45,895 nt of DNA, taken from assembly GCA_018335335.1 (NCBI GenBank), contig JAGXKG010000013.1:1-45895 (forward strand). The letters run 5' to 3'. The stretch comes from Candidatus Thorarchaeota archaeon. GTDB taxonomy: Archaea > Asgardarchaeota > Thorarchaeia > Thorarchaeales > Thorarchaeaceae. Shown piece by piece: positions 978-36,566 of this stretch. The position numbers were made by a program, and so were the translations under genes. The notes below the pieces were generated by a model. That model had not been told where the DNA came from. It saw only the letters and a list, made by a program, of their open reading frames with translations, and searched no databases. Positions within the stretch are counted from its first letter, which is position 1; every line of letters starts with the position of its first letter.

Positions 978-2063
978 TTATATCAGTTTCACATCATATT
1001 GACTTGCTTTCTCTCGGATGTACTGAATGTAGAATTCTTTGAGTTCCGCAAGAGGCATCCCAAACGCCTTGAAGGCTTCGAGTTCTCCCTTTCTGCGTTT
1101 CTTTATGAGGATATCATTCTCTCGACTGAGTATCTCGTTCTCTTTGATAGCAGGTATGCCCTTGTTTTGACGTGCACATCTTAGGTCGGACTTGGACATC
1201 GGTTCGAGTGTGTGTTCAATCGATGCAAGTAGTCCGCTTTTCGCCCAGAAATCATCAGTGGTCAAGCCAATCAACTTTGCATCTGGAGCGGCCAGCCCCT
1301 TGATATTCGCCAGCTCTATACTGTTGCTTTGGATTGTCGAGAATATTCGCAGGGACCAAGGCGACATATCTACAAGAACCAGTATTGGAATCTCTTCTTG
1401 TGACAGCTTGCGAATCCATGCACGCATATTACGACCGGGTTGTCCAAAAAGAGCACCAACCCCAATATCCATTTCTTCAGGCATTCCCAACTCAATCAGG
1501 TTTCGCGCCATAGCCTCTTTTTCCACAAAAACTGCGGCTTCAATGTTCAAATCATGGATTTGAACTTCAGAGGGTCTTGACGAAATGAACCAACCGTACT
1601 CGCCGGCTGCATCACATGTGATTCTTTTGCCTGACAAGTCGGAAAGAGTGACATCGCCATAGAAGGTACCTTTGGGAGAGCTTACGACGCCAAACTCTTC
1701 CCGAGGAACCGAATGTCCATTTTTCCGTAGAATTCTCTCGCACAGTTTGATGATTCGATTGGTTTCATTTTGGTTACCGATTTTCAGAACTTGTTTTACA
1801 TCCTTGACCTTGTGCATGTAGTAGAAGTCACGCAATGACATCGACATGCCTTGCTCAAGATGCTCTTTGAATCTAGAAAGGCCGTATGTAAGCCCAGCAA
1901 TCATCTTGGCACTTTTCACCTTGCGGCCATCCATATACGAGGGGGAATCATCCACATGTGTATAACCGGACTCAGACTCGTATTCAACATTTGACTTGGA
2001 AGAAGCGTAATAGCCAATTTCTGGAAAATAGCCGTCATTTAGGGTATCTGCAAGTGTTTCCAA
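978..2063 (-). CDS. top6A: DNA topoisomerase VI subunit A (Spo11/Top6A family).
   Basis: 361 aa. It has an LRDFYY catalytic-tyrosine-type motif and a toprim glutamate motif AAVFVEKEAMARNL, matching the Top6A VVEKDAVF consensus. It lies immediately downstream of top6B in the typical B-A operon order. Confidence 0.88.
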   Translation of the reverse strand: METLADTLNDGYFPEIGYYASSKSNVEYESESGYTHVDDSPSYMDGRKVKSAKMIAGLTYGLSRFKEHLEQGMSMSLRDFYYMHKVKDVKQVLKIGNQNETNRIIKLCERILRKNGHSVPREEFGVVSSPKGTFYGDVTLSDLSGKRITCDAAGEYGWFISSRPSEVQIHDLNIEAAVFVEKEAMARNLIELGMPEEMDIGVGALFGQPGRNMRAWIRKLSQEEIPILVLVDMSPWSLRIFSTIQSNSIELANIKGLAAPDAKLIGLTTDDFWAKSGLLASIEHTLEPMSKSDLRCARQNKGIPAIKENEILSRENDILIKKRRKGELEAFKAFGMPLAELKEFYIQYIREKASQYDVKLI

Positions 2064-2122
2064 TACGTTATTGATGAGCGGAACTACTTCGTCGGCCGCC
2101 CGAATTTCTTTTCTAGATTCGG

Positions 2123-3661
2123 TCAGTATTTACACTCCCCTTGAGGAAAAAGAGATTCGATCGAAACTTCTTGGCTTGTGGATTGTGAAAGGGTACTCGA
2201 TATGAATCTGTAATATTGTTGCAGTTTGTTCTTCCTGCGTCGCTTCCTTCGCGCTCTATGTTTTCTCCTCACATTAGTTGCAATATCTCGAAGGCACTGT
2301 TTGAAGCCCAAATCAATTTCACGTCTGATGCTGTCTACATTACCGATATACTCCTTACCGACCGTCTTGTAAGGGATCTGAGTTGAACATATGTGTGTAA
2401 AGAAAGCGAGTTTATCTTGCTCATCCAAATCATAGTTTCCAAGATTCAAATCCCGCATCACTTTGTTTGATACGTCCGAACCCTCATCATATAGCAAGGG
2501 AATTCTGTTTGCAAAGCGATAGAGGTTCAGCCTCTCTTCAATTTCTCCACCGTAGGCTACACCCACTTCGACGATGAATGGATGCCCTTCGTATACGCTT
2601 GGTTTTCTCTGACACACCGCAAAGAACTGTGGTTCAAGCCTTTTGATTCCTGCTGAAAGAACCTCTTCGCCAGCTGGGGACAGAGCAGAAGCTGAAGGGG
2701 GAAGGAACTCTTCAAAGGTGTCTATACCCCTCATGAGTTGCTTTAGTTCGGCTTTTGTCAGGTCACTTGGATTTTTCTCTGCATCGAGTCCACAGTGTTC
2801 CAGAAGACTTTCGGCGGTTACTTCTCCTACTCGATGGAATGCGCTTCTCAAGAATCCGGCCAAGGTCCTATTTTCCGCTTCATTCAGCATCTTCTTGAGC
2901 ATCTCAAGATCTATCCCTTCTGGGTGCGGTTTCATTTCAGAAGGCACATCGGGCAGGGAGCTAGTTACACGCTTGAATACGAGATGCTCATCATCTGGGT
3001 TTTCAAATCTAAGAGACGCGTAGGGAGCGATGATGCTGGTTTGCCTGAAATAGTCAATAATTCTTCGTTTACTTCTCAGCCAGTCACCTTTAAGATGATA
3101 AGAAACCGTAGTGCCGTGACCTGCCTGATTCTTCGGGAAATCTGTCTCTTCAAGAATTATTGGTTCATTCGCCTCAATATCAAGCTGTAGAACAAGCTTA
3201 TGCCCCACGGGCTCTCCATGTTTACTTGTTTTGATTTCTATCGGGTTTTGTGTAGTAATTTGTCCATAAAGGAGGGCTAAAGCCCCACCGAGACCGAATG
3301 TTCCCCGGCTTTGCTTCTGGGCATATTTTGTGCCGGTTAGCATCTTACCTAGCAGCTTTGGTGCATTCTCTGGGCATATACCGGTTCCATTATCCTCAAC
3401 GGTCAGGCAGTACAGCTGAGGTCCAGCCGCAAAAAGATCTTCGTCATCATCTAGCGAACTTTCTCTCTGAAGTGATACTGATATTTCAGGTAGTACTCTG
3501 GCCTCTTCACAGGCATCAAGAGCATTCTCCACCAATTCCCTCACTGAAACATACAACGATCGAGCAGGATTGTCAAACCCAGCGATGGTACGGTTCCGAT
3601 AGAACCAAGCGGAGACTGATAATTCCTCTAAACTAGAATCTGCGCTGCCAGCTGATAGCAT
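2123..3661 (-). CDS. top6B: DNA topoisomerase VI subunit B (GHKL ATPase).
   Basis: 512 aa. The N-terminus SLYVSVRELVENALDACEE is the Bergerat/GHKL ATP-binding motif typical of Top6B. There is a GxxGxG-like loop (GTFGLGGALALLYG). The size and the adjacency to top6A fit. Confidence 0.9.
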   Translation of the reverse strand: MLSAGSADSSLEELSVSAWFYRNRTIAGFDNPARSLYVSVRELVENALDACEEARVLPEISVSLQRESSLDDDEDLFAAGPQLYCLTVEDNGTGICPENAPKLLGKMLTGTKYAQKQSRGTFGLGGALALLYGQITTQNPIEIKTSKHGEPVGHKLVLQLDIEANEPIILEETDFPKNQAGHGTTVSYHLKGDWLRSKRRIIDYFRQTSIIAPYASLRFENPDDEHLVFKRVTSSLPDVPSEMKPHPEGIDLEMLKKMLNEAENRTLAGFLRSAFHRVGEVTAESLLEHCGLDAEKNPSDLTKAELKQLMRGIDTFEEFLPPSASALSPAGEEVLSAGIKRLEPQFFAVCQRKPSVYEGHPFIVEVGVAYGGEIEERLNLYRFANRIPLLYDEGSDVSNKVMRDLNLGNYDLDEQDKLAFFTHICSTQIPYKTVGKEYIGNVDSIRREIDLGFKQCLRDIATNVRRKHRARRKRRRKNKLQQYYRFISSTLSQSTSQEVSIESLFPQGECKY

Positions 3662-6871: not shown

Positions 6872-9058
6872 ATGTCAGAAGATACAGTGAAATTGAAGGT
6901 AGCAGCGGCGATGCCAAAAGACCAAGGCCGCGGTATAGTTAGATTGAACTCCAAAATAAGGCGAGATCTTGGCCTCCGGTCAGGAGACTACGTGCTTATC
7001 AAAGGAAACAAGGAAACGGTTGCTGTGGCTTGGCCAGCCTTGCAAGAAGATGAAGTCCTCGATATGATTCGGATGGACGGTTTGATTCGAAAGAACGCTG
7101 GAGCTAAGCTAGGTGAAGTTATCAAGCTCCAGAAAATCGACCCTCCTGATGCAACGCGAGTTGTATTGGCTCCAAGCCAACCAATTCGTTTCCGCGGTGG
7201 TTTTGAGACCTACCTTAAGAAACAGATTCTCAACAAGCCACTTACGCGTGGAGATGTACTTATGGTTGCATCCATAGGCTCAGGTCTGAAATTCCATGTA
7301 ACTGCGGTATCGCCCAGTAAGCATGTGAAAGTCAACCGTCAGACGAAGGTTGAGATTAGGACTAAGCCGGTTCAGGCAGAAGATACGCAGGTTCCTCAGG
7401 TTACATACGAGGATATTGGCGGCCTTTCCAAGGAATTGCAGAGAATACGAGAAATGGTAGAGCTGCCAATGAAGTCTCCCGACCTTTTCAAGAGGCTCGG
7501 TATTGAGCCGCCAAAGGGAGTTTTCCTCAGAGGACCTCCTGGAACAGGAAAGACGCTCATTGCAAAAGCTGTGGCAAATGAGTCTGGTGCCAATTTCCAA
7601 GCTATCAATGGGCCAGAAATCATGTCCAAGTTCTATGGAGAATCAGAACAGAAGCTTCGCGAAGTATTCGAGGAAGCCGAGAAAAATGCTCCAAGTATCA
7701 TCTTCATCGACGAGATTGACAGTATCGCGCCCAAGCGAGCAGAAGTCACCGGTGAAGTTGAAAGACGAGTTGTTGCTCAGCTCTTGTCACTCATGGATGG
7801 CCTAGAAGGTCGTGGACAAGTGATTGTGATTGGAGCTACGAACCGTCCTGATGATGTTGACGAAGCTTTGAGACGGCCTGGCAGGTTTGACCGAGAAATC
7901 CATATCGGGATACCTGATAGACAAGGTAGACTGGAGATTCTTCAGATTCATACTCGAGGTATGCCCCTAGAAGAGGATCTTGAGTTGGGTCGCCTTGCTG
8001 ATGTCACACACGGCTTTGTTGGAGCTGATTTGGAGTCTCTTGCTAGAGAAGCTGCAATGCACGCTTTGAGACGGGTTCTGCCTCATGTTGACCCAGAAAC
8101 GGGTGACATTCCTGCAGACATCCTGAATGATCTGTACGTTACGCAAGAGGACTTTGAGGCCGCTATGTCCGAGATTTCACCTTCTGCGCTACGTGCGGTC
8201 ATGGTTGAGTCACCAAATGTACAATGGAATGATGTTGGTGGTCTGGACGAGGTAAAGAGCAGGCTAAGAGAAGCTGTTGAAGCCCCACTTAAGCATCCTG
8301 ATGTCTTTGAAGAGATGGGTATTCGCACTCCTAAGGGTGTGCTTCTATTTGGCCCTCCTGGAACTGGTAAGACCCTTCTCGCGAAGGCGGTTGCTACTGA
8401 AAGCGAGGCCAACTTCATTTCTATCAAAGGTCCAGAAATCTTCAACAAGTATGTTGGTGAGTCTGAGAAGGCTGTTCGGGAGATTTTCAAGAAGGCAAGA
8501 CAAACCGCACCGTGTGTACTGTTCTTCGACGAGATTGATGCCGTAATGGGTCATAGGAGCATGCGCGATGAAACTGGTGTGAGTAAGAGGATTGTAAACC
8601 AGTTCCTCGCAGAGCTTGACGGTATGCAGTCACTTCAGAATGTGCTGGTTGTTGGTGCAACAAATCGAGCAGACATCCTTGATCCGGCTGTATTGAGACC
8701 TGGAAGATTCGACTCGGTGGTATATGTTCCTCCACCTGATGAGGATGCAAGAGTTGAGATTTTCGAGGTACATACTAGGGATATGCCATTGACTGAGGAT
8801 GTTGATTTACGAGAACTTGCAAAAATGACTAAAGGATTCTCCGGTGCGGATATCGAAGGTCTCTGCAGAGAAGCGGCAATGACGGCTGTGAGAAAAGACT
8901 GGAAGGCCAAGCCTGTAGAAATGAAGCATTTCAAGAGCGCCATGGATGAGGTTAAGCCAAGTATATCTGCAGAAGACAAGGAACGGTACAAGTCTCAGGC
9001 TGAACGTGTCCTTCGTAGAGCACCAAGCCGCGATAAGCAACTCTCTGGCTACGTCTAA
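6872..9058 (+). CDS. cdc48: Cdc48/VCP/p97-like AAA+ ATPase with two AAA domains and a double-psi-barrel N domain.
   Basis: 728 aa. There are two Walker A motifs (GPPGTGKTL twice), two Walker B motifs (IIFIDEIDS and VLFFDEIDA), and second-region-of-homology arginines. The N domain VKLKVAAAMPKDQGRGIVRLNSKIRRDLGLRSGDYV is typical of the CDC48 N domain. An SD GGGAG precedes the ATG. Confidence 0.93.
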   Translation: MSEDTVKLKVAAAMPKDQGRGIVRLNSKIRRDLGLRSGDYVLIKGNKETVAVAWPALQEDEVLDMIRMDGLIRKNAGAKLGEVIKLQKIDPPDATRVVLAPSQPIRFRGGFETYLKKQILNKPLTRGDVLMVASIGSGLKFHVTAVSPSKHVKVNRQTKVEIRTKPVQAEDTQVPQVTYEDIGGLSKELQRIREMVELPMKSPDLFKRLGIEPPKGVFLRGPPGTGKTLIAKAVANESGANFQAINGPEIMSKFYGESEQKLREVFEEAEKNAPSIIFIDEIDSIAPKRAEVTGEVERRVVAQLLSLMDGLEGRGQVIVIGATNRPDDVDEALRRPGRFDREIHIGIPDRQGRLEILQIHTRGMPLEEDLELGRLADVTHGFVGADLESLAREAAMHALRRVLPHVDPETGDIPADILNDLYVTQEDFEAAMSEISPSALRAVMVESPNVQWNDVGGLDEVKSRLREAVEAPLKHPDVFEEMGIRTPKGVLLFGPPGTGKTLLAKAVATESEANFISIKGPEIFNKYVGESEKAVREIFKKARQTAPCVLFFDEIDAVMGHRSMRDETGVSKRIVNQFLAELDGMQSLQNVLVVGATNRADILDPAVLRPGRFDSVVYVPPPDEDARVEIFEVHTRDMPLTEDVDLRELAKMTKGFSGADIEGLCREAAMTAVRKDWKAKPVEMKHFKSAMDEVKPSISAEDKERYKSQAERVLRRAPSRDKQLSGYV

Positions 9059-9258: not shown

Positions 9259-11739
9259 GTGGATTCTTCAGAGCGTTCGGTTCTCAATATTTGCCCTTTT
9301 TCGCATTTTGACAATGCTGATGTTGAGACATACGAACACAATATGAGCATGGCAGCTTGGAATCTCAAAGCTGTACTTGATTTCCTAGATCGAGATGACA
9401 AACACCGATTTTGTATCGGCCAAACTACTCTTCTTGAGGGCTTTCAGAAGCTTTTTCCAAACTACTGGGATAAGCTACAGGAACGGATTCTAGAAGGCAG
9501 CTTGGAACTTGTTGGTGGAACATATGTTATGCCCGATTTTGTTTTACCTGATGGAGAATCAATCGCCCGACAATTCGTATTTGGCAAAAGATATGCAAAA
9601 CAGAAACTGGGTGTAGACATACAAACAGGTTGGGCAATCGATTCTGCTGGATTCTGCAGTCAAATTCCACAGATTCTTCGGTTGTCTGGTATAGATTCAC
9701 TGTTTCTATCAAGGGGGATGCCTTATGATGGCCCTAGCGAATTCTCGTTAGTTGCTCCTGATGGAAGCAGAGTATTCGCAATTTGGCTGTCAGAGGGGTA
9801 TGACCTTGCTGCTTGGCTTTCTGAATCGAAACGGGAGGCTTTCTCACAAGTCATGCTTGCTATTGACAAGAAAATGACGCGTAATGTGTCTGGGAATCTG
9901 TTTCTAGCTATGGGGGGCGAGTTGGTGGCGCCTCCGATGCAGCTTTCTGAGGTGATTGAAACCTGGAATGAACTCTTTGGTGATATGAGAAGCACCATTG
10001 TTACTCCCTCGGAGTATGTTGAAAAGATCAAGTCCGTTCAGGCCAAATTGCCCAAGATCCAAGGTCCCTTACTTTCGAATCGCTTTCGCCATGTTGCTTC
10101 TGGAGGCCTGAGTTCCCGGGTTGAGCTGAAGTTGCTTAACCGGAAACTGGAAGGCCTTCTGTATGTAACCGAGATTTGCCTTGCACTTTCAGAAAACCAT
10201 AGCAAAAGCAAAGCCCTTGATAATGAATGGAAAATGCTGTTATTCAATCAGGATCATAACATTATACGCGGAATATGTGGAGACAAACCATATCGAATGG
10301 CTCTGAGAAGATACAACAATGCTATCGAAAAAGCAGATGGTATACTGGAGAATCAGCTACGGACATTAGGGGCCGACCTCGCGACGGATGATGGTGTAGG
10401 GTCGATTTTGGTTGTAAATCCCCTGTCGTGGATTCGAACCGACGTAGCAAGAGTCCGTCTTGGTAATGTTGAATTGAGCGAAAATATCGAAATCATCAAT
10501 CCTGCTGGAGAGGTTGTACCCCACCAAATCGTCGAGGATGATAATGGCCTCGTAGAGGCTGTTTTTATAGCTGAAAATATGCCCAGTACTGGATTCAGAA
10601 TTTATACTATTAGAGAAGAGGTTGAAGAGTCTGAATTTGACAGTCTTCTCGAATGTGGTGACAGCTGGATGGAATCGAACGAGTTTGTACTTAACTTCGA
10701 TGAATACAGCGGATCACTATGTCGACTGTTCGATAAGACCAATGAAGGAGAGGTTTTCAACGGGATGGGCCCCACCATTTCAGTTGAGAACGAAGTTGGC
10801 GATTTATACTCACATCATTCTTCGGAGCTTGCTTCTGAGAAACAGAAGCTGGATTCATCTCGGAATGAGGGTGAGATAAAAATCATCGAAAGCGGGCCAA
10901 TAGCGGCAATTGCTGAAATTCATGGCACGATTTCTGAAAGCCCTTTCAAGCAGCGTGTTACCCTGTACAGATCTATACGAAGAATCGACATAGAGACAAA
11001 GCTCGATTTCAAAGGTATACATAGACGAGTTCGTCTCAGATTCCCGACCCATGTTTATGCCGATGAAGTTACTGTTGGAGCCCAGTTTGGAGTAGAAAAG
11101 AGGCATCTGGAAAACCATGATTTCAGGAGTCGAAGGGAATTAGAGGACTTTCCAGCGCTAGACTGGGTGGATTGTTCAGGCCCTGATTCTGGCATTTGCT
11201 TTTCAAATGTCGGTTTGCATGAGTATAGCTTTCAAGATGGTATTCTAGAAGTAACACTTCTGAGAAGTGTGGACTGGCTTTCTCATGGTAAACATGACAC
11301 TCAGGTGCGGACCCCTCTAGCCAAAGAGGAAGGAATCCATACCTTTCGAGGCTCGATTATTCCGCATGACGGTGACTGGCAAGAAGCTAGAGTCTGGAGA
11401 AGTTCAACCGAGCATCGAATTCCGCTAGTGTGTTCTTTTGTTGACGGCTCGTTAAATCCTAATTCCAAAAGGGAGCTATCATGGCTGAGAGTCGAAGGCT
11501 GTGATTTGTGTCTATCCTGTTTAAGGCCCACTGAGACACCAAACGAGTATGTTCTCAGGTTGTATGAGCCTTGCGGCAATGAGGGAACTTCAGAACTACA
11601 ATTCTATAGGAGACTCAGTAGTATAGAATTGACGGACATCTGCGAAGAGACGATCGGCAGTGTGAGTTTCGAGGGGAATACGGCTGAAATTCATGTCGAT
11701 CCATATACCATACTTACCCTCCGCGTGGAGTTTGCTTGA
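9259..11739 (+). CDS. Glycoside hydrolase family 38 (alpha-mannosidase-like). GTG start.
   Basis: 826 aa. The N-terminal domain carries GH38-like motifs: CPFSHFD (compare PHSHxD), LELVGGTYVMPDFVLPDGESIARQFVFGKRY (compare GRLEFvgGGWVmpDEA..hy...IrQ...G.r) and GWAIDSAGFCSQIPQIL (compare GWqIDpFGhS...P.il, the nucleophile Asp). Confidence 0.68.
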   Translation: MDSSERSVLNICPFSHFDNADVETYEHNMSMAAWNLKAVLDFLDRDDKHRFCIGQTTLLEGFQKLFPNYWDKLQERILEGSLELVGGTYVMPDFVLPDGESIARQFVFGKRYAKQKLGVDIQTGWAIDSAGFCSQIPQILRLSGIDSLFLSRGMPYDGPSEFSLVAPDGSRVFAIWLSEGYDLAAWLSESKREAFSQVMLAIDKKMTRNVSGNLFLAMGGELVAPPMQLSEVIETWNELFGDMRSTIVTPSEYVEKIKSVQAKLPKIQGPLLSNRFRHVASGGLSSRVELKLLNRKLEGLLYVTEICLALSENHSKSKALDNEWKMLLFNQDHNIIRGICGDKPYRMALRRYNNAIEKADGILENQLRTLGADLATDDGVGSILVVNPLSWIRTDVARVRLGNVELSENIEIINPAGEVVPHQIVEDDNGLVEAVFIAENMPSTGFRIYTIREEVEESEFDSLLECGDSWMESNEFVLNFDEYSGSLCRLFDKTNEGEVFNGMGPTISVENEVGDLYSHHSSELASEKQKLDSSRNEGEIKIIESGPIAAIAEIHGTISESPFKQRVTLYRSIRRIDIETKLDFKGIHRRVRLRFPTHVYADEVTVGAQFGVEKRHLENHDFRSRRELEDFPALDWVDCSGPDSGICFSNVGLHEYSFQDGILEVTLLRSVDWLSHGKHDTQVRTPLAKEEGIHTFRGSIIPHDGDWQEARVWRSSTEHRIPLVCSFVDGSLNPNSKRELSWLRVEGCDLCLSCLRPTETPNEYVLRLYEPCGNEGTSELQFYRRLSSIELTDICEETIGSVSFEGNTAEIHVDPYTILTLRVEFA

Positions 11740-13606: not shown

Positions 13607-15376
13607 ATGTCTGAAGAGAGAAAATCTAGAATAGTTGAACAATCACGGAAAGATGCCAGTCGAAAATCGGGAGGAAACAATCTCCTTCGCCAAGCCAAGG
13701 AGCTCGAATCTAGCGGGAACAGTTCGAAGGCGAGGGAGCTTTTTGTTCAGGCTGCAAGAGCCTATATTGAATCTGCAACAGAGTATCGAAGTTCGAAGGG
13801 CTACAAGATAGCCGCGCGTAATTCTTCGGAAGCGGGTGATGTTTATTCCCACCTTGCAAAAGCTGGCGAGGCAATGGATGCTTACAAGAACGCCGCAGAG
13901 GATCTATATTCAGCAGCATCTGAGCATCTGATGTGGGACGAACCAGCAGAAACGAAGAACGGTACTGCCTTGGCCATGACATCATGTTTGATGTATCTGA
14001 TGATTGGACAAGAAGATACGGCATTCACGAAAGCCCGTGAATTTCAAAACCAGTACGGTTCCAAACTAAGTTTCCCGGCTGTTCAAAGGCTTTCAAGCCT
14101 TGTTGACAAATTGCGGCAATCAATTGCCAATATCAATATTGAGGCTTTTTCGGAGGCTGAAACAATGGCGATTTCAGAACTGAAGCCAGCCCTTTCCAGC
14201 GCAAAAGCATCATACTTCACGAAGTATGTGGACAAGGGTTTGGAGATGGTTCGGGAGATTCTTCGTGGAAAACTACAGACTCCCAAGTTGACAGGTCGTC
14301 TTCAATTGCCTATTGACATGACCTTCTCAGAGCAATTGGGATTGGTTGCTGTAGTGAACAATGTTGGAGAGGGCGCTGCTCAGAATGTGAAAGTGGAGTG
14401 GTATCTAGACGATGGTCTTGAACTCGTTTCTGGTGATGAAAGAAAGCAGTTCCAAACAATCGATGCAAATGATTCAGTTGAGCTTCGCATTACTGCGAAG
14501 GCAGCTGAGGAACTAATGGGAGCTCGCGACTATGAACTCTTGCTCAGGGGTTCTTATTCGGATCGGCTGAAGACTGAGTATTCACTACAGATTGGACCTG
14601 GCATTCTTACTCTCAAAGATTACAAGGAAAGTGAAAAGATTGCTCAGGATTTGGACATCACCGAGGGAAGAATCGGTCTTCTAAGAGCCTCTCTTGAGCA
14701 GTTCCCTTTTGACCGAGAACCTCTGGACAGAATTGTAAAGCAACTGAAATCTTCGCTGGGGAAAGCACAGGAGAAACTCCAGTCTGGTGACTTAGATACC
14801 GCAAAGGCTCGAGTGAAGATTGTCAACGAGCTGATTAGCCAACTGGATGATCTACTCGCGGATGAGGATTTGAGAAGATCACTTCAGACGAAACGGAAAG
14901 AAGCAAAACGAAAAGCGGTGTCATCCGTCATCACGTCCTTAAAGGGTGATGTTCTGGATATCATTGAGAAATATTTCTCAGATATAGATGCTGAGCTTGT
15001 TCCTGCCGTGAATCGTATGCAGGATTTGGCTTCATCAAGTGGAACCAAACAGCTCCTCGATGCTATGACACACCAAATCGAAGGAATATCTAGAACCCTT
15101 ACGGAGACCGCTTCTGTTGTGCAAGGAATCCCTCAAAAGGACCCTGGCATGATGGACCAAGCCACTAAGGATGCAACTGAAAACATCCAAGCTACGCTAT
15201 CTGAGGTTGAAGTTCTTAAGACGCAACTAGTCAAAGTTTCGGAGGGTCAGAGACAGGCTAGTGAGAAGGCACAACAAAACGCAGGGAACGTGGAGCGTCG
15301 TCTTGCTGAGATTCGTTCTTTGAAGACAGAAGTCCTCAACGCTTTTGAACAGGATACTGATTTGGTACCCGACTAG
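13607..15376 (+). CDS. Multidomain hypothetical protein. It has an N-terminal TPR/SNAP-like helical repeat region, a central Ig-like beta-sandwich segment (CARDB/DUF11-like), and a C-terminal coiled coil.
   Basis: 589 aa. The N-terminal 130 aa show periodic A/Y helical-hairpin repeats (ARELFVQAARAYIESATEY..AGDVYSHLAKAGEAMDAYKNAAEDLYSAA). The middle GLVAVVNNVGEGAAQNVKVEWYLDDGLELVSGDERKQFQTIDANDSVELRITAKA resembles a CARDB-type domain. The C-terminal 200 aa are heptad-rich. An SD GGGAGG precedes the ATG. Confidence 0.55.
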   Translation: MSEERKSRIVEQSRKDASRKSGGNNLLRQAKELESSGNSSKARELFVQAARAYIESATEYRSSKGYKIAARNSSEAGDVYSHLAKAGEAMDAYKNAAEDLYSAASEHLMWDEPAETKNGTALAMTSCLMYLMIGQEDTAFTKAREFQNQYGSKLSFPAVQRLSSLVDKLRQSIANINIEAFSEAETMAISELKPALSSAKASYFTKYVDKGLEMVREILRGKLQTPKLTGRLQLPIDMTFSEQLGLVAVVNNVGEGAAQNVKVEWYLDDGLELVSGDERKQFQTIDANDSVELRITAKAAEELMGARDYELLLRGSYSDRLKTEYSLQIGPGILTLKDYKESEKIAQDLDITEGRIGLLRASLEQFPFDREPLDRIVKQLKSSLGKAQEKLQSGDLDTAKARVKIVNELISQLDDLLADEDLRRSLQTKRKEAKRKAVSSVITSLKGDVLDIIEKYFSDIDAELVPAVNRMQDLASSSGTKQLLDAMTHQIEGISRTLTETASVVQGIPQKDPGMMDQATKDATENIQATLSEVEVLKTQLVKVSEGQRQASEKAQQNAGNVERRLAEIRSLKTEVLNAFEQDTDLVPD

Positions 15377-16728: not shown

Positions 16729-17151
16729 CTATTTTTCTAAAAGGCGTCCAATTTCCTTGGCATACTTTCGCATCTGAGTTACTGCGAGCCCCATCGAGGT
16801 TATGTCTTTCGCGGAGCCCATGATAAGAAAATCTCCAGCATGCGAGAGGACGACAAAACCATCCCTGCCTCGGACGATGACCTCATATAATTCGTCCAAT
16901 GCTAGTTTATCGGTTGCCATCTCACCCTGCACCAGTAGGGCTGCACTTACAGCCGCCATGAGGTCGGGATCAGCGTCAGATTCTTCTGTTGCGAAATAGG
17001 CTAGTTTCACGCCTTGTTTACTGACTACTGCGATTGCATCCATATCAGCATAGTTGGTGAGTCCCATAAGGAGCTCAACCAGCTCTTCTTCTTTTTCGGG
17101 ATCAAGTTGCGCGGACGTTTTCTTCTCCTCCAAGATATTTTTGAAACTCAC
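16729..17151 (-). CDS. Roadblock/LC7 (MglB-like) domain protein.
   Basis: 140 aa. The pattern AIAVVSKQGVKLAYFATEESDADPDLMAAVSAALLVQGEMA...GFVVLSHAGDFLIMGSAKDITSMGLAVTQMRKYAKEIGRLL fits the Robl_LC7 alpha-beta-beta-alpha-beta-beta topology signature. The apparent GTG start overlaps the stop of the upstream gelsolin gene by 4 bp (GTGA). Confidence 0.78.
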   Translation of the reverse strand: MSFKNILEEKKTSAQLDPEKEEELVELLMGLTNYADMDAIAVVSKQGVKLAYFATEESDADPDLMAAVSAALLVQGEMATDKLALDELYEVIVRGRDGFVVLSHAGDFLIMGSAKDITSMGLAVTQMRKYAKEIGRLLEK

Positions 17152-18095
17152 TTAGCAACGAGTTTCTTTTTTCCTTTCTTACCGCCTGCCTTTTTATTCT
17201 TGGCTGTTTCTTCTTCTACTTCTTCTTGAAAGAAGGTAATCAGATCACCCAGTCTTTCTTTCATCTCTACCTTTATGGGGCTTAGAATGGCGTCCGGTGT
17301 ACCCTTAAGGAGCTCAATTCCCAGTACATTACCATCTTTTACAATAACTCGTGGAATGAATCCTTCTGCCATGAATGTTCCTTCGGGGGGATCCTTCACC
17401 TTCTCAATTTCGTGCTCTATTTTTTCCTTTCCGAAGATTGAAGTCTTCTTCTCAGCCACTGTGTAAAGCTCATTGTATATGATGACCAGTTCGCGTTCGT
17501 AGCCTTCTGGTGGGCTTTGTTCCTTCAATTGTTCAATCATCGATCGGATTTCATCATTTGGTGCTCTTGTTGCTGTTTTGGAAACTGGAGCAGGTTCTTT
17601 AGGTTGGGAGCTGGTCTGTGTTGTGCTTGCTCCGCTGCTAGTTGGAGGCGGTGTTGGTGGTTTCTCATGAGTTCTCTTTTCTGGAACCTTTTTGGGTGGC
17701 GGAGCTGGCTTTGAAGATGGAACCTCCGGTTCTTTCTTCGGTTTCTTTTTTGTTGAGTCCTTCGGTTTCTTCTTGGGTTTTGGAGGTGTTTTTACACCTG
17801 GTTTCTTGACTCTTTTGGCCCCTTCTCCCTCTAAGGCAACGAAGAACGGAGGTGGTTCCTCTCCTTCATCGAGTGGTCTGACACTGAAATGGAAACCATA
17901 TTCACTTCGTAGATTTGTAGCTACTCGCGCACCAATGAATTTCCTTCTTATTCCTGCCTGACTTCCTTTCCAGAGGAAGATGCTCTTGGTTTCACCATCA
18001 ACGACACAGAAGACTTCACCCGAATCCAACGAATCTTTCGTTATTTCATGTTCTTGCAGTGTGCCATCTTCTGAAACTTTGTAACCAGTTACCAT
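17148..18095 (-). CDS. Gelsolin-domain protein: a single N-terminal gelsolin repeat, a Lys/Pro-rich linker, and a ~130-aa C-terminal domain of unknown function. This is the 1DGelX-like architecture described for Thorarchaeota.
   Basis: 315 aa. The N-terminal LDSGEVFCVVDGETKSIFLWKGSQAGIRRKFIGARVATNLRSEYGFHFSVRPLDEGEEPPPFFVALEG matches the gelsolin-repeat signature (hydrophobic strand, D, x, IFxWxG, ..A....A, then EGxEPxxF). The low-complexity linker is KPKKKPKDSTKKKPKKEPEVPSSKPAPPPKK. Confidence 0.7.
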   Translation of the reverse strand: MVTGYKVSEDGTLQEHEITKDSLDSGEVFCVVDGETKSIFLWKGSQAGIRRKFIGARVATNLRSEYGFHFSVRPLDEGEEPPPFFVALEGEGAKRVKKPGVKTPPKPKKKPKDSTKKKPKKEPEVPSSKPAPPPKKVPEKRTHEKPPTPPPTSSGASTTQTSSQPKEPAPVSKTATRAPNDEIRSMIEQLKEQSPPEGYERELVIIYNELYTVAEKKTSIFGKEKIEHEIEKVKDPPEGTFMAEGFIPRVIVKDGNVLGIELLKGTPDAILSPIKVEMKERLGDLITFFQEEVEEETAKNKKAGGKKGKKKLVAK

Positions 18096-18251
18096 AGTTA
18101 TCCCTACACAAACCGGGGTTTTCCCTGTTTTTACGAGCTAAAGAATGGGTTGGCCCCATTTCTTAGCTTCAACAGTTCGAACTCATATATGATATTTATT
18201 GGTTTATCTTATATTCCCCTGTTTCTTTCGATTGGATGTATTTCTCTATCC

Positions 18252-19316
18252 CTATTTTTCTTCTGATAAGACTACTGTGTCTCTAGGGTCGAAGATGAAT
18301 CGTATATTTTCCCCTCTTTTTCTTCTGAGTTTCGCCGCTGTTTCCGATTCGGTCACGAGGGCAATCAAGGGTTCTCCATTAAACTCCATTGTGGCTTTAT
18401 ATGCTCCAATCTGTGGCGTTATCGACCGGACAGTTGCCATCGCTCCATTATCATTACTATCCAGAATTCTGATTGCTGCGGGTTTCACCGTGAATGTAAC
18501 TGCGCTTCCGGGGTCATAGGAACCCCTTATTTTGAGTAAACTATCTCCAATTCTCACTCTTGAGGTCTTTTCTGTTTTTTCTTCAACTAAGCCTGAAAAA
18601 ACATTGCCCCTTCCTACAAACCGTGCCACGAACTCGTTTTTTGGTTCATTGTATAGCTCTTCTGCTGTACCCGTTTGAACAACTCTGCCACCTTCCAGTA
18701 TGGCTACTCTGTCTGATACCGAGAAGGCTTCAGCCTGACTATGTGTTACATAGATGGTGGTGATTCCCAATTCCCTCTGAATCTTCCTGATTTCAACCTG
18801 AAGCCGTTCTTTGAGAATAGGATCTAAATCTGACAACGGTTCATCTAGAAGGAGTAGACGTGGTGATTTGGCTACCGCACGGGCAAGCGCAACCCGTTGT
18901 GCTTCACCTCCACTAACTTCGTCAATGTTCCGCTCAAGCAGATTATCTATGCCGAAAACAGCTGCCAATTCTTTCACCCTTTCTATAATTCTGTCCTTGC
19001 CCCATCCTTCCATTTCAAGTCCAAAGGCGATATTGTGAAAGACATCCATATTTGGAAACAAGGCTATTGATTGAAAGACCATCCCAATCTGTCGCTTTGT
19101 GGGGTTTAGAAATGTGACATCCTGCTCATCAAAGAGGAGTCTCCCGCTATCAGGTTTGATAAACCCGGCAACCATCCTAAGCGTGGTTGTTTTTCCAGCG
19201 CCACTAGGACCCAGCAAAGCCATCAATTCCCCGTCTTCTAACTTCAAACTGATTGGCCCTACTCTGGTACCATCGCGGAACTGTCTTTCCATCTGGATGA
19301 TTTCAACTTCCACCAT
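18252..19316 (-). CDS. ABC transporter ATP-binding subunit (PotA/FbpC/ThiQ-like) with a C-terminal TOBE/MOP-like regulatory domain.
   Basis: Walker A GPSGAGKTT, ABC signature LSGGEAQRVALARA, Walker B LLLLDEPLS and an H-loop. The C-terminal ~100 aa form a beta-rich TOBE-like domain. Confidence 0.9.
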   Translation of the reverse strand: MVEVEIIQMERQFRDGTRVGPISLKLEDGELMALLGPSGAGKTTTLRMVAGFIKPDSGRLLFDEQDVTFLNPTKRQIGMVFQSIALFPNMDVFHNIAFGLEMEGWGKDRIIERVKELAAVFGIDNLLERNIDEVSGGEAQRVALARAVAKSPRLLLLDEPLSDLDPILKERLQVEIRKIQRELGITTIYVTHSQAEAFSVSDRVAILEGGRVVQTGTAEELYNEPKNEFVARFVGRGNVFSGLVEEKTEKTSRVRIGDSLLKIRGSYDPGSAVTFTVKPAAIRILDSNDNGAMATVRSITPQIGAYKATMEFNGEPLIALVTESETAAKLRRKRGENIRFIFDPRDTVVLSEEK

Positions 19317-20963
19317 CTACAGCGCACCTCCAGCGGCTTTGTCAGATAAGCGTTCAATTGATAGAAAGGCTAGAGAGCAACAAAGAGTAAGAATCAAGGC
19401 TGCCGCTCCTGCTTCAACGAATTTACGAACTGCTAGATACTGATATATCGCTACTGCCAGCGTAGTATTTTGTGGAAGCGCTATGAACAGTGTTGCTGAC
19501 ATCTCTCCGATGGCCATCGCAAAGGAGAACGTGGCACCTACCAGTATCCCTGGAGCAATAAGTGGCAGTTCAATGAAAAACAATCTTTCTAGTCTCGATG
19601 CACCGAGTAAATCGGCTTGTTCCAGCAGTGAGCGATCTATGTCTTTTACCGCAATTTCAATTGCTCGTACAGTAAATGGAAGACCAATAATCGTCTGAGC
19701 GATTACAATGAGAGGCCACGGATTTGTACTCAAGCCCAGCGGCACTGCAATTGCTCTCATTAGGCCATACGCTAGCGTGATGGATGATATTCCCAAGGGT
19801 AAGAGAGTGATGGCTGAAGTTACTGTAGCAATCCGAGAATGATTGAACCGTTGGCGATATGCTAGTGGTATGGCGATGAGAACAGCAAAGAAAGTTGAGA
19901 GAATAGCGTAGAAAAGTGAGTTGATAAATGGTCGAAGCCCTTTTCCTGTACCTAGCTGTACTAGATTGACGAAGCCCTGTAATGTGAACTCGTCTGTTAT
20001 CGGACTGTAGAATGAAGAGCCAACTACAGCAACTATGGGTCCTATAATTAGTATAGATACGATTACTGTATATAGTGCAGCAAGGAACTGAAAAACCCTT
20101 CTAAGATTTTGGAACTGAACCGTTTTTACTGCCCTTGTCTGTCCTGTAGCATGAGTGTCTGATCTACCAATGGTGATATACCAGTATGCCAAGATGATCG
20201 TAATTATCAACTGAATCAACGCTAGGGCGCTGGCTTCACCGTAGTCTGCTAAACGAAATGCATTCCAAATCCGGACTTCGATTGTTGCGTAACGACCCTG
20301 TCCAAGAGCAAGGACAATCGGAAATGACATGAAGCAGAACAAGAAGGTCAACAGGCTGGCAGCAACAATAGACTTTAGGATGTGTGGGAGGATAATGCGC
20401 CTGAATTTCTGCAGTGGACCCGCTCCCAAAATATCGGCGCTTTCTTCGATTTCCGGACTCAGTCTTTGGAGTGATGCTGATACGATAAGAGCAACTAGAG
20501 GTATGTTATAGAAGACGTGAGCGAGTACTATTCCAGTAAAGCCAGAGGCTAGATCCAAGGCTGAGGTATCCGCGCTGAGAATAGTCATCAGAATAGAATC
20601 GATGAAGCCTCCCTGACCGAACATTCGTAGAAAACCAACTACAACGACAATTGGCGGCAATACAAATGGAATAAGCATAGCAGCTTGAATCAGCTCTTTT
20701 CCACGAAAGTCCAATTTGGCGAGTATGATTCCGCCAGGAAGACCAAGAAGTACTGTGGCAATGGTACTTACTACTGCTTGGACAATCGTAAATCCAAAAA
20801 CGCGATGCGTTACTGATGAAGTCCAGACCTCCAAGAAGGAGGACCCTGGGCCCACAAGGAGGCCTCTAACTAGAACTGAAAGAACAGGATACACAAGGAA
20901 TACGAACAGGAGTGCGACGGGAATCCCAATAATGGCATATTGCCTGATTTTCCTCGCATGCAT
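19317..20963 (-). CDS. ABC transporter permease with a duplicated (two-domain, ~12 TM) permease, as in FbpB/ThiP.
   Basis: 548 aa, hydrophobic throughout. It has two EAA-like loops, and its stop directly abuts the start of the ATPase gene (19316/19317). Confidence 0.85.
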   Translation of the reverse strand: MHARKIRQYAIIGIPVALLFVFLVYPVLSVLVRGLLVGPGSSFLEVWTSSVTHRVFGFTIVQAVVSTIATVLLGLPGGIILAKLDFRGKELIQAAMLIPFVLPPIVVVVGFLRMFGQGGFIDSILMTILSADTSALDLASGFTGIVLAHVFYNIPLVALIVSASLQRLSPEIEESADILGAGPLQKFRRIILPHILKSIVAASLLTFLFCFMSFPIVLALGQGRYATIEVRIWNAFRLADYGEASALALIQLIITIILAYWYITIGRSDTHATGQTRAVKTVQFQNLRRVFQFLAALYTVIVSILIIGPIVAVVGSSFYSPITDEFTLQGFVNLVQLGTGKGLRPFINSLFYAILSTFFAVLIAIPLAYRQRFNHSRIATVTSAITLLPLGISSITLAYGLMRAIAVPLGLSTNPWPLIVIAQTIIGLPFTVRAIEIAVKDIDRSLLEQADLLGASRLERLFFIELPLIAPGILVGATFSFAMAIGEMSATLFIALPQNTTLAVAIYQYLAVRKFVEAGAAALILTLCCSLAFLSIERLSDKAAGGAL

Positions 20964-20987
20964 TTTTGGTACTCCTCGTCGCTGAAT

Positions 20988-22121
20988 CTAGGCTGCTGTC
21001 ATAATATTTTCCCATTCGTCAAGCCATGACTCAAGATTGGTTGCAGTTTCGTTCCTGGTAAGCAGATTATTGAGCATATTTATTTCGTCAGGATGGAGGG
21101 CATACTGGAATGCCGGTTCCAATTCTACAGATCCATTGACTGGATACATCCATTGATTCACTGCAATATGGGACTGGACATTCCCTGTAAGACAGTACTG
21201 GATAAATTCCCTAGCCAAATCCGGATGAGGCCCTCCTTTGACTATTCCCATGCCTTCAATTTGTACCCATGCATATTCCTGATTATTGTGGACGATTGGT
21301 GCTACCCCTGTTGATGGTTCGGTCTCCGACATGTACGCAGAATAAGCTGGGTCCGTTCCATAGCTGACGAGCAGGCTCCGTGATTCATCACTATCCCACT
21401 TGCTCCATGCTTCCGACCACCCCTCTTGCACATTAATGTCATCTCTAACTTGAGTCCACCAATCGGTCCAATCTTCTTCTTTGAGTTTCTCTTGCACAGC
21501 GATTTCACTCAAAAGGAAGCTTAGACCTGGGCTACTCATCTGAGGATTCTCAGTAACGAGACTTGATGCCATCTCGGCAAGATTTGAAAATGTAAGATTA
21601 GCTAATTGAGGGTGCGTTGTTACATTCATATTTGCCATAGAGTAGATGAGTGTAACCAAGCCGTAATCAAAGGGCACAACGTAATGCTCTGGGTCAAGAG
21701 CATTCACCAAGTCCAGTGATGTATTCTCCAAAGACTCTTGTAGGTTTGGAGGAACATATGGTTCCAATACGGTCTTTGTATCTTCTCGGAGGATGAGGAT
21801 GTTATCGATTCCAATAACAACATCGGCGACTGGATTCTCTTTTTCGGCAACTAACCTCGAAATAATTCCACTTGCATCGGTTTGAAGACGCTCGATTTGC
21901 ACATCAATCCCATATTCCTCTTCAAATCCCGAAAACACTTGATCATCAATTTCGTCAGGATTTGGTCCCCACGCCATAAAGCTATCATAAGTGTAAACTC
22001 TGAATTTGGGTTTAGGCCATGTGAGAATTCCATACACTGACACACCGATGACGACAATAATGAGTACAACTGCGATTATCTTCTTTGGATCCTGCCTTGG
22101 ACTGTAGTCACTTTGTGACAT
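20988..22121 (-). CDS. Extracellular solute-binding protein of an ABC importer (thiamine or iron(III)-type SBP family). N-terminal TM/signal anchor.
   Basis: 377 aa. The N-terminal hydrophobic anchor IIAVVLIIVVIGVSVYGILTW is followed by KFRVYTYDSF, the conserved start of TbpA/FbpA-type SBPs. It is the first gene of the SBP-permease-ATPase operon. Confidence 0.8.
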   Translation of the reverse strand: MSQSDYSPRQDPKKIIAVVLIIVVIGVSVYGILTWPKPKFRVYTYDSFMAWGPNPDEIDDQVFSGFEEEYGIDVQIERLQTDASGIISRLVAEKENPVADVVIGIDNILILREDTKTVLEPYVPPNLQESLENTSLDLVNALDPEHYVVPFDYGLVTLIYSMANMNVTTHPQLANLTFSNLAEMASSLVTENPQMSSPGLSFLLSEIAVQEKLKEEDWTDWWTQVRDDINVQEGWSEAWSKWDSDESRSLLVSYGTDPAYSAYMSETEPSTGVAPIVHNNQEYAWVQIEGMGIVKGGPHPDLAREFIQYCLTGNVQSHIAVNQWMYPVNGSVELEPAFQYALHPDEINMLNNLLTRNETATNLESWLDEWENIMTAA

Positions 22122-22205: not shown

Positions 22206-23123
22206 ATGCGGCCTCCATGCGAAATAGTGATTCGAGAGATCCTACCAAGAATTAGGGCAGGCGTGGCTCGACGTCTAAGTAACGAGGACATGTCTCAGAG
22301 CAAAATAGGAGAAAGACTGGGCATCACGCAGGCTGCTGTGAGCAAATATCTTGGTGAAACACCTAAAATTGATGAGAACCTGAAGGGTCTGGTAGAGAAT
22401 ATTTCAGACATGATTGTGAGCGGAACCAATAGACCTGATCGAACGGTTAAGGCCATTTGTAGAACGTGCATGTATTTGCGGATTGGTTCTTCAACGTGCA
22501 AGCGTCATCGGGAGCTCATTCCCGCTCTTGAAGATGTGGACTGTAGAATATGCTCTGAACTGCTTGGAGATAAAGAAAAGGGATTCTCAAATCGTGCCAA
22601 ACTCCTACAAGACATGGAAGAGGCCGTGCGAATAATTGAAACGATTCCGAATTTCGACATGCTCATTCCCCAAGTACGCGCGAATCTGGCTTCGTGTGAA
22701 CATTCTCCCAAATCTATTCGCGATGTTATTAGCATACCTGGCAGAATCACTTTGCTCAAGAATCGTGCTCATGCGGTCGGAGCTCCCGAGTTTGGTTCCT
22801 CTGAGCATACTGCTGAGATTCTGCTTTGGGGAAACGAGGTACGTGAAGAAATCCGTTCGTGTCTCTGTTTGAGCGGAAGATCCGCTGTTCGGGAAATCGC
22901 TGAAACGGCGGGATTCGATATCATTGAGGTGGAAACGCCAGCTCGAAGCGCAAAAGAAATTATTAAACACTCGCAACCCCTTGTTGAGACCTCAGGTTTC
23001 GATTCAGATTATCCGGCCATTTATGTTCCTGGCGGCCTCGGCGTGGAGCCAATATTGTACCTTTTCGGACCAGGATCCATACCACTAGCAAATAAATGCA
23101 GCGAGATGACAGATTCCTTGTGA
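22206..23123 (+). CDS. Transcriptional regulator with an N-terminal HTH, a Cys4 cluster, and a ~200-aa C-terminal domain. It may be a ThiR-like (HTH + ThiN) thiamine regulator.
   Basis: The HTH is SQSKIGERLGITQAAVSKYL. The Cys motifs are CRTCMYLRIGSSTCKRH...DCRICSE. It is divergently adjacent to a thiamine-type ABC importer, consistent with the archaeal ThiR regulon described in the literature. The ThiN assignment is not verified from sequence. Confidence 0.5.
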   Translation: MRPPCEIVIREILPRIRAGVARRLSNEDMSQSKIGERLGITQAAVSKYLGETPKIDENLKGLVENISDMIVSGTNRPDRTVKAICRTCMYLRIGSSTCKRHRELIPALEDVDCRICSELLGDKEKGFSNRAKLLQDMEEAVRIIETIPNFDMLIPQVRANLASCEHSPKSIRDVISIPGRITLLKNRAHAVGAPEFGSSEHTAEILLWGNEVREEIRSCLCLSGRSAVREIAETAGFDIIEVETPARSAKEIIKHSQPLVETSGFDSDYPAIYVPGGLGVEPILYLFGPGSIPLANKCSEMTDSL

Positions 23124-29258: not shown

Positions 29259-30104
29259 TCAAACTATTTCTGCCGCAACGTATGCTACAACGCTTTCTTT
29301 GTCTCCGGTCACATCACCAGAATTCGTGTATTGAAGGAGTCTGAATTCCTCAGCCCCTTGTTCGTTAGCATAGACGACCGCGGATGCTATTGGTCCAGCG
29401 CCACAAATACTGATTCTATGTTCACGAACAAAATTGATGAAACCCTCTGAATCTAAGAATTCGAGATACTCCATTGCTTGGTTATCTTTTCTTTTAGCTG
29501 TATCTGCCGGTTCAAAATGGGTGAAATCGGAACTGGCTATAACCAGAATATCCATTTCTTCACTCAATGAAGCAAAGGTTTCACCAAGAGATTTGCAGAT
29601 TTCATATGACTGAGTTTTCAGACAGATGGGAACAAATGGAGGAGCGCTATCAAATATGTACTGTAAGAAAGGAAGCTGAACTTCAATTGAATGCTCTTGA
29701 GCGTGAGCAACGCAATCGCTTTTGACAAATTCATTTTCGTCAAGAATGGCCTTTCCCAGCTCGGTATCATACTTGACTACACCAAGTGGTGTTTCCCAGT
29801 CCTCTTCACAGATAGCAGCTCGCGCTCCTTGCCCTGAGTGATTGGGACCTAATATGATTATGTGATCAGGTCTTCCGTCTTCGAAAATCTCTAGGTAGGA
29901 GTGTGCGGCAGTCATACCCGAATATACATAGCCTGCATGAGGAGCAATCACCGCCTTAATATTCCTATTTTCTCCAGGTGTGCCTACTGGTGTTTTTTCT
30001 GGCCCCATTTTCTTGGAGAAGCAATCCTCAAGCCTCTGCTCTAGAAGCCCCTTCTGTCCTTCGTAGAATTTGCCTGCTACTACCGGAAGACGTGTCATTT
30101 CCAA
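29259..30104 (-). CDS. MEMO1-family protein (AmmeMemoRadiSam system protein B-like).
   Basis: 281 aa. The conserved blocks are RLPVVAGKFY, APHAGYVYSG, ILGPNHSG, EHSIEVQLPFLQ and SSDFTHF. Confidence 0.8.
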   Translation of the reverse strand: MEMTRLPVVAGKFYEGQKGLLEQRLEDCFSKKMGPEKTPVGTPGENRNIKAVIAPHAGYVYSGMTAAHSYLEIFEDGRPDHIIILGPNHSGQGARAAICEEDWETPLGVVKYDTELGKAILDENEFVKSDCVAHAQEHSIEVQLPFLQYIFDSAPPFVPICLKTQSYEICKSLGETFASLSEEMDILVIASSDFTHFEPADTAKRKDNQAMEYLEFLDSEGFINFVREHRISICGAGPIASAVVYANEQGAEEFRLLQYTNSGDVTGDKESVVAYVAAEIV

Positions 30105-33827: not shown

Positions 33828-33855
33828 CTATCTAATCGGCGTTCGGGACGCTTTA

Positions 33856-35484: not shown

Positions 35485-35653
35485 CCTTATTCCTCCAGTT
35501 TCATTCTTAGCCTTATTTTGGTAAAACAAAACTGTACATGCGCTTCGTCGAAGATATCCATTTAAGCATTACTTTGTGAACACATTAACTTCGATTTCAA
35601 ACCCAATAAAAAGCCTTCTCTCAGCCACATTCTCTCCGAATCTTTCTAAAATT

Positions 35654-36562: not shown

Positions 36563-36566
36563 TGCT

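Follow-up and report, generated by a model that had tools for sequence, protein, structure and literature searches.

Gene linkage between the single-gelsolin-domain protein 1DGelX and a Roadblock/LC7 protein in Asgard archaea

Introduction

The window analysed here is the whole stretch of 45,895 nucleotides (nt) from Candidatus Thorarchaeota archaeon (contig JAGXKG010000013.1, assembly GCA_018335335.1). It carries the gene of 1DGelX, a single-gelsolin-domain protein, followed on the same strand by the gene of a Roadblock/LC7 protein. Homology identifies both proteins, their genes are co-linear in this genome, and the linkage is conserved in Thorarchaeota and in further Asgard lineages. In three Heimdall-type loci, a Rab-like small GTPase gene occupies the position of the Roadblock gene. 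We propose that the pair forms a conserved module, in which the calcium-independent actin severing of 1DGelX would be coupled to a Roadblock/small-GTPase switch, with the Roadblock protein binding 1DGelX. We give this proposal an even chance. Within it, we infer co-transcription of the two genes, physical binding of their products, dependence on a GTPase and the direction of regulation.

The severing activity of 1DGelX is already published. The protein of SMTZ1-83 binds rabbit actin with a dissociation constant (Kd) of 7.7 µM, tighter than the other Thorarchaeota gelsolins tested (Akil et al., 2020, PNAS, PMC7444086). Unlike the 2DGel proteins, it nucleates and severs rabbit actin filaments robustly in vitro without calcium control, and the recombinant protein is active on its own (PMC7444086). 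Short bundles arise during severing in these assays. In human cells, GFP-1DGelX shows weak association with filaments and concentrates at nuclear-envelope and endoplasmic reticulum (ER)-like regions (PMC7444086).

The linkage of this gene to Roadblock is new within the literature that we searched. PMC7444086 makes no mention of gene context, Roadblock or operons, and the papers found that name gelsolin, Roadblock and Asgard together draw no connection between them. An earlier sequence-only reading of this DNA had known of no described functional link between the two protein types; our search likewise returned none, and a description outside that literature is possible.

Identity of the two proteins

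The 315-residue product of the first gene contains the motifs ETKSIFLWKG and DEGEEPPPFF, which the sequence-only reading had taken as signs of a gelsolin repeat. In a phmmer search against the PDB, residues 1–86 match best to the Thorarchaeota ProGel (7c2f_B, E = 5.7e-12). Further matches are the Thorarchaeota 2DGel3 (7c2g_G, E = 5.6e-7), the Loki/Heimdall 2DGel proteins (7whg_G, E = 9.7e-6; 7whf_G, E = 1.9e-5) and horse gelsolin as a vertebrate representative (1d0n_A, E = 3.8e-4). By its match to these known repeats, the domain of about 90 residues belongs to the gelsolin/cofilin superfamily. The Pfam model PF00626 stays below threshold in the 315-residue protein (13.8 bits against a cutoff of 21, E = 0.055), and none of the 120 close homologues listed has a precomputed Pfam match. 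The PF00626 model is built mostly on eukaryotic gelsolin repeats. The gelsolin repeat claimed from the sequence is thus borne out by the motifs and the solved structures, although not by the Pfam model.

We collected 329 homologues of 1DGelX. The best 120 of them are all about 300–340 residues long (E ≤ 2e-107), and the named relatives among these 120 are mostly labelled Thorarchaeota; here and throughout, the taxon names of relatives and loci are the labels in their database records. An alignment of 18 sequences resolves four parts, namely a highly conserved gelsolin domain, a variable linker, a strongly conserved C-terminal domain and an invariant KKLVAK. The linker opens with a K-P-G...P-P motif, of which K98, P99, G100, P104 and P105 are invariant, and its remainder varies in length and sequence. 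Over the full length, the window protein is 59% identical to the orthologue of Thorarchaeota SMTZ1-45 (P0035).

These comparisons make the protein an orthologue of the published 1DGelX: it shares with the protein of Akil et al. (2020) the succession of a single gelsolin/cofilin domain, a linker and domain X. Homologues, alignment and published definition agree on the 1DGelX-like architecture that had been proposed for it. The Lys/Pro-rich linker (about residues 93–175) and the C-terminal domain of no known family were also read correctly, as the latter has no Pfam match. Orthology with the SMTZ1-83 protein predicts calcium-independent severing and nucleation for the window protein.

The 140-residue product of the second gene matches PF03259 above threshold (39.6 bits against a cutoff of 23, E = 4.3e-10, residues 26–111). 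Two solved Roadblock/LC7 chains, 9jue_D and 7f8m_A, match it at E of about 1e-7 (phmmer against the PDB), and its assignment to Roadblock/LC7 holds on both counts. Our search found no relevant literature on the structures 7F8M and 9JUE. The family comprises 147 orthologues; the 120 listed have identities of 79% or more and are usually 128–129 residues long, and the named ones are mostly labelled Thorarchaeota. Of the two Pfam profiles proposed for checking the pair, PF03259 is therefore above and PF00626 below threshold, and the gelsolin fold is supported by the solved-structure matches. The further description of the protein as 'MglB-like' stands at the level of the Roadblock superfamily only. 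No solved MglB structure came up in the phmmer search at E ≤ 10, and no cognate MglA-type GTPase gene is paired with the Roadblock gene in the window or within 6 kb around the pair in 72 Thorarchaeota loci.

Conservation of the gene pair

One genome per GTDB species was scanned for Thorarchaeota, which yielded 72 loci, 68 of them usable with the 3′ end present. Three loci whose contigs end inside the gene (L068, L070 and L071) were left out of the count, as was L069. In each of these 68 loci, the next gene downstream of 1DGelX, on the same strand, encodes a Roadblock orthologue. Across these loci, the Roadblock proteins are 73–92% identical, against 53–84% for 1DGelX and 39–79% (mostly 50–58%) for the adjoining ABC ATPase. 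Among the 68 are the published assemblies SMTZ1-45 and AB_25, represented by L022 and L033. We considered L069 as a counter-example, since this complete chromosome encodes residues 1–93 of 1DGelX only and has no Roadblock gene; its open reading frame (ORF) runs into a masked stretch of N, which makes the locus uninformative. The synteny extends beyond the pair: nearly all loci have the ABC ATPase gene upstream, and about 30 have an aminotransferase gene downstream. In about 860 kb of flanking DNA from the 72 loci, the Roadblock protein of the window matched only the adjacent copy.

The junction between the genes is more variable than their order. In the window, the TGA stop codon of 1DGelX shares 4 nt with the GTG start of the Roadblock ORF, and this GTGA overlap is present as the sequence-only reading had described it (Table 1). 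Among the 68 species loci, it recurs in L001 alone, so translational coupling by overlap is peculiar to the sublineage of the window. The spacer has a median of 32 nt and measures at most 50 nt in 53 loci; where the genes do not overlap, it ranges from 11 to 285 nt. Of the 66 loci whose spacer measures 8 nt or more, 62 have a GAGG/GGAG sequence resembling a ribosome-binding site ahead of the ATG of MSSHLDP.... Longer spacers (64–285 nt) occur in 15 loci, and a pattern match finds a TATA-like box (TATTTAA, TATTTAT or TATTTTA), often as AAAGGTATTTAAC, in 13 of them (L014, L020, L040–L042, L047, L050, L051, L053, L057, L059, L060 and L072). The box lies about 25–50 nt upstream of the Roadblock ATG at the junctions inspected. 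Such boxes suggest that the Roadblock gene is able to have its own internal promoter where the spacer is long. The AT-rich region between 1DGelX and the ABC ATPase gene is a possible promoter of the pair in the window.

The Roadblock start codon of the window also deviates from the family. Nearly all relatives start at the ATG of MSSHLDP..., and the same codon is ACG (Thr12) in the window. The window keeps the GGAGGAG ahead of this ACG, and its ORF stays open for 11 codons upstream to the GTG. The Thr codon and the N-terminal extension are common to the sublineage P0121–P0125, and the extension reads MSF..LEEnK in close relatives. The true start in the window could be GTG at 17151, TTG at 17133 or the non-canonical ACG at 17118.

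Beyond Thorarchaeota, a metagenome scan with the Loki-like 1DGelX subgroup as query returned 80 loci, of which the 58 whose downstream sequence spans 600 nt or more were counted. A Roadblock orthologue is adjacent in 57 of these 58, on the same strand in 54 and convergent, 21–56 nt away, in three. The same-strand spacer has a median of 156 nt. The sole exception, L106, has an AT-rich insertion in place of the Roadblock gene. The pairs collected number roughly 130 and group into two tight clades.

The 1DGelX representatives divide into several groups, and in three further divergent lineages the two genes are again neighbours. The Roadblock gene follows 1DGelX directly and on the same strand in L081 (22 nt), L082 (1 nt), L084 (43 nt) and L085 (12 nt); in L084, its product has 130 residues and matches PF03259 at 21 bits. 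In L078, a convergent gene for a 281-residue Roadblock-domain protein lies one small ORF away from 1DGelX. Behind its Roadblock domain, this L078 protein (2209–3054, minus strand of the locus) has a C-terminal extension of 150 residues that is acidic and rich in Pro and Gln. The Roadblock neighbours outside Thorarchaeota are 33–42% identical to that of the window (E = 5e-20 to 4e-36) and form one subfamily with it.

The flanking genes differ by lineage: the ABC transporter and aminotransferase genes of Thorarchaeota give way to YjeF_N and VWA genes, tRNA synthetase and HD genes, or Meth_synt_2 elsewhere. Therefore, the pair is the only conserved unit. Adjacency is kept while the other neighbours change, and the exceptions are L074–L077 and L168. 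The objection raised beforehand, that the pair might be confined to one genome, is removed by the Thorarchaeota and Loki-like counts together with the single loci of other lineages.

Small-GTPase genes beside 1DGelX

A Ras-family GTPase gene is the immediate downstream neighbour of 1DGelX in L073 (labelled Hodarchaeales), L080 and L087, three loci of Heimdall type. The GTPases match PF00071 at 160–174 bits, and the best solved matches to that of L073 are Rab30, Rab11 and Rab21 (about 1e-36). The three loci have a class-I tRNA synthetase gene upstream in common, and they make up the whole Heimdall-type sample. A Rab-like GTPase in the Roadblock position lends independent support to the GTPase–actin connection that the sequence-only reading had proposed.

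Domain X and the C-terminal tail

Domain X was described as a predicted coiled coil without homology to actin-binding proteins (PMC7444086). Unlike that prediction of Akil et al. (2020), our AlphaFold2 model shows a compact alpha-beta5-alpha domain, with a mean predicted local distance difference test score (pLDDT) of 93.2 from an alignment of 39 sequences (34% mean column identity). One helix is followed by a five-stranded antiparallel sheet and a 35-residue terminal helix. An earlier model built from nine close sequences has the same topology at a pLDDT of 75. With five strands packed between two helices at a pLDDT of 93, the model does not support a coiled coil for the domain, and the coiled-coil signal could be attributable to the last helix alone.

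The modelled domain appears to have no recognisable solved relative. The best Foldseek match stands at E = 0.34, and the domain X profile has no sequence match in the PDB at E ≤ 10. Comparison with the Roadblock profile by hhalign gave a probability of 2.3%, which does not place domain X among the Roadblock/longin proteins. A phmmer search with residues 180–295 against 1.84 billion representatives found homologues in 99 clusters at E ≤ 1e-3. Nearly all of these are proteins of 270–330 residues with domain X at the C-terminus behind a gelsolin domain. Four entries, P0275, P0315, P0300 and P0298, have variant architectures: a gelsolin domain with two tandem X domains (434 and 442 residues), a gelsolin domain with X and a long coiled coil (430 residues), and an unrelated 444-residue protein that has an X domain N-terminally.

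The protein ends in a short basic tail, in which K311, L312, V313, A314 and K315 are invariant in the 18-sequence alignment. The codons of KKLVAK vary synonymously among the Thorarchaeota loci, so selection acts on the peptide. Other 1DGelX tails are of the basic FGF(R/K)xQK or FKIKFKK type in Loki-like proteins and L(R/T)DL(T/S)KLGI in Heimdall-type proteins.

Other genes of the window and of related loci

The features of the window are collected in Table 1. In addition, genes for a thermosome, an Rpb6-like and an AAA_18 kinase-like protein lie at 33084–37825, 15–20 kb from 1DGelX. The same trio is found directly upstream of 1DGelX in the 'Asgardarchaeia'-type loci L074 and L076, and it may be a remnant of an older synteny. 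These two loci also encode an Arf-like GTPase with a 120-residue N-terminal domain (L074, 7260–8743; L076, 7165–8621). Its gene has a 4-nt overlap with a gene for a coiled-coil protein of 204–221 residues, which gives weak CdvA-like and other coiled-coil matches. In L168, the gene downstream of 1DGelX (2186–2476) encodes a 96-residue protein that ends in ISHGG, like a beta-grasp modifier of the ubiquitin/SAMP/ThiS type, and a topoisomerase-like gene comes next.

Table 1. Coordinates of the gene pair, its parts and other genes in the window
Feature	Position	Strand	Remarks
1DGelX gene	17148..18095	minus	315 residues plus stop, ATG start; ORF and homology to the published Thorarchaeota single-gelsolin-domain actin-severing protein
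Gelsolin/cofilin-type domain, residues 1–92	17820..18095	minus	phmmer against the PDB
Lys/Pro/Thr-rich low-complexity linker, residues 93–175	17571..17819	minus	18-sequence alignment
Domain X, residues 176–302	17190..17570	minus	predicted alpha-beta5-alpha model; no Pfam family or solved structural relative
Basic C-terminal tail ending KKLVAK	17151..17189	minus	invariant in 18-sequence alignment
GTGA stop/start overlap	17148..17151	minus	plus strand reads tcac
Roadblock/LC7 gene	16729..17151	minus	140 residues as the ORF runs, GTG start; relatives 128–129 residues
Ancestral Roadblock start site	17116..17131	minus	GGAGGAG 17125–17131, then ACG (Thr12) 17116–17118
1DGelX–ABC ATPase intergenic region	18096..18251	minus	AT-rich, TATA-like stretches; sequence read
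ABC transporter operon (binding protein, permease, ATPase)	18252–22121	minus	directly upstream of 1DGelX, same strand
ThiN thiamine-phosphate synthase gene	22206–23123	plus	beside ABC transporter operon
589-residue protein	13607–15376	plus	long helical regions, weak CARDB/DUF11-like middle domain, no significant Pfam match
Eco57I/MmeI-type DNA methyltransferase gene	38524–40338	minus	type IIG/IIL-like restriction-modification
Topoisomerase VI A and B subunits, CDC48-type AAA ATPase, GH38 alpha-mannosidase, Memo-like protein	978–3661, 6872–9058, 9259–11739, 29259–30104

Discussion

In the module that we propose, 1DGelX would sever and nucleate actin and would be made together with a dedicated Roadblock protein. 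The Roadblock protein would bind 1DGelX via domain X, its long C-terminal helix or the basic tail, and may serve as a regulatory platform that places severing under the control of a Rab/Ras-like GTPase. This would allow actin disassembly or remodelling to be triggered at particular sites or moments. The gene next to 1DGelX in Heimdall-type lineages would be that of the GTPase itself. The two genes have stayed adjacent across 1DGelX proteins of about 30–45% identity while the other neighbours changed, which speaks for a functional link. That one clade has a small GTPase gene in place of the Roadblock gene points to a functional link as well, and also to a small-GTPase system. Since 1DGelX works without calcium control, a protein switch is plausible as the other regulatory input.

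Several observations weigh against this module. The sequence-only reading had advised a search for GTPase genes. In the window, a Pfam scan of the main ORFs and tblastn with the neighbour GTPases brought up no small GTPase gene, and the three neighbour GTPases as queries matched nothing within 6 kb of the pair in the 72 Thorarchaeota loci (about 860 kb). The GTPase partner in Thorarchaeota is therefore hypothetical. The most divergent 1DGelX locus, L168, has neither a Roadblock nor a GTPase gene nearby, and in L074, L075 and L076 an N-terminally extended Arf-like GTPase gene lies three genes off. Small GTPases are numerous in Heimdall-type genomes, and our background measure covers the Thorarchaeota flanks. 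Roadblock proteins also have roles independent of GTPases. The long Loki-like spacers, the convergent Roadblock genes and the 13 Thorarchaeota TATA-like boxes count on the same side, and they mean that strict co-transcription is not universal. Finally, the physical interaction between 1DGelX and the Roadblock protein is one that we infer.

The absence of a GTPase gene near the pair in any Thorarchaeota locus would suit another role for the Roadblock protein, that of a structural subunit working independently of GTPases. Its dimer could clamp two 1DGelX molecules into a bivalent severing and bundling factor, or anchor this factor to another structure. LC7/Roadblock dimers on the dynein intermediate chain and LAMTOR dimers in Ragulator are models for such a subunit. 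Asgard Roadblock proteins do crystallise as dimers (PMC10933270), the modelled domain X ends in a 35-residue helix that might be the clamp site, and bundles were seen during the severing assays (PMC7444086). Yet 1DGelX alone is already active in vitro (PMC7444086), and a purely structural subunit leaves unexplained why a Rab-like GTPase takes its exact position in the Heimdall-type loci. We regard this role as unlikely. It is also conceivable that the two proteins are neighbours, perhaps co-expressed, that act in different processes, and that their adjacency is inherited gene order. The wider Thorarchaeota region is indeed syntenic, including the ABC ATPase and aminotransferase genes, and the promoter-like boxes in some spacers and the convergent Roadblock genes also count in favour of this reading. 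Against such inertia, the pair alone persists between lineages whose 1DGelX proteins are about 30–45% identical (68/68, 57/58 and the single loci), and the adjacency outlasts inversion of the Roadblock gene. The swap for a GTPase of the same signalling system is hard to square with it too, and we consider mere gene order distinctly improbable.

A different emphasis would make 1DGelX mainly a regulator or effector of a GTPase in the cell, its gelsolin fold contacting the GTPase by analogy with Sec23–Sar1 and its activity on rabbit actin being a side property. Eukaryotes offer a precedent for contact between a gelsolin fold and a GTPase, whose gelsolin-like domain is missing from the Sec23-like proteins of Asgard archaea (PMC11914678). 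The neighbours of 1DGelX are consistently parts of a GTPase system, and the location of GFP-1DGelX in human cells, with weak filament association and a nuclear-envelope/ER-like concentration (PMC7444086), would fit as well. This emphasis has to contend with robust severing and a rabbit-actin Kd of 7.7 µM, the tightest of the Thorarchaeota gelsolins tested (PMC7444086), and with a gelsolin domain that is closest to the actin-binding ProGel and 2DGel proteins. We attach very little probability to it. Sec23/Sec24–Sar1 resembles our proposed module in that a gelsolin fold works with a small GTPase (PMC11914678); unlike 1DGelX, Sec23 is a five-domain coat protein whose gelsolin-like domain does not bind actin.

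The Roadblock/small-GTPase module can be set beside other known systems. The bacterial MglA/MglB polarity switch consists of a Roadblock-fold GTPase-activating protein and a Ras-like GTPase acting on the MreB cytoskeleton in Myxococcus. Here, too, a Roadblock-fold protein (PF03259) of small-GTPase systems is tied to a cytoskeletal output. Unlike in MglA/MglB, no MglA-like gene adjoins the pair in the window, the Heimdall-type GTPase is Rab-like rather than MglA-like, and the partner is a gelsolin-type severing protein of eukaryote-like actin instead of MreB. In eukaryotes, Rho, Rac and Cdc42 control actin through WASP, formins and cofilin, and gelsolin uncapping is Rac-dependent. As in that control, the proposed GTPase switch would set where and when actin remodels. 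The eukaryotic routes run through Rho-family GTPases, kinases and phosphoinositides, whereas the partner here is a Roadblock protein, and we imply no homology of pathways.

Work on Asgard Roadblock, longin and GTPase proteins offers a further comparison: the dimers of the Roadblock proteins resemble the eukaryotic Ragulator and TRAPP platforms (PMC10933270). Conserved neighbourhoods of eukaryotic signature proteins have been reported for ESCRT and for an operon of LAMTOR1-like, Rab-like and DENN genes, while most such proteins have none (Liu et al., 2020, preprint). One conserved operon of Roadblock and Rab-like genes was thus already known. A link to an actin-binding protein, as found here, is not among the neighbourhoods reported in either work (PMC10933270; Liu et al., 2020).

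These results bear on how Asgard archaea regulate their eukaryote-like actin, and on what their GTPases and Roadblock/longin proteins do. According to Tran et al. (2024, PMC10933270), the GTPase genes of MK-D1 as a rule do not share operons with genes for Roadblock, longin or TRAPPC3 proteins. For Asgard GTPases and their regulators, the same paper describes a general lack of operon organisation, which makes their partners hard to assign. In our case, gene order ties one Roadblock subfamily, or the Heimdall-type Rab-like GTPase, to one characterised calcium-independent severing protein. The model of domain X would also revise the structural picture of that protein. As a tentative extension, possible but less than probable, a three-part module of a Rab/Ras-like GTPase, a Roadblock platform and 1DGelX may have existed in the ancestor of the Thor, Loki and Heimdall lineages as a forerunner of GTPase–actin control, with domain X as its signal-receiving adaptor. 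The adjacency of 1DGelX to a Roadblock gene or, in Heimdall-type lineages, a Rab-like GTPase gene in nearly all lineages sampled suggests that small-GTPase control of actin remodelling is older than eukaryotes. If so, GTPase-to-actin signalling, a hallmark of eukaryotic cell biology, would predate the eukaryotes themselves.

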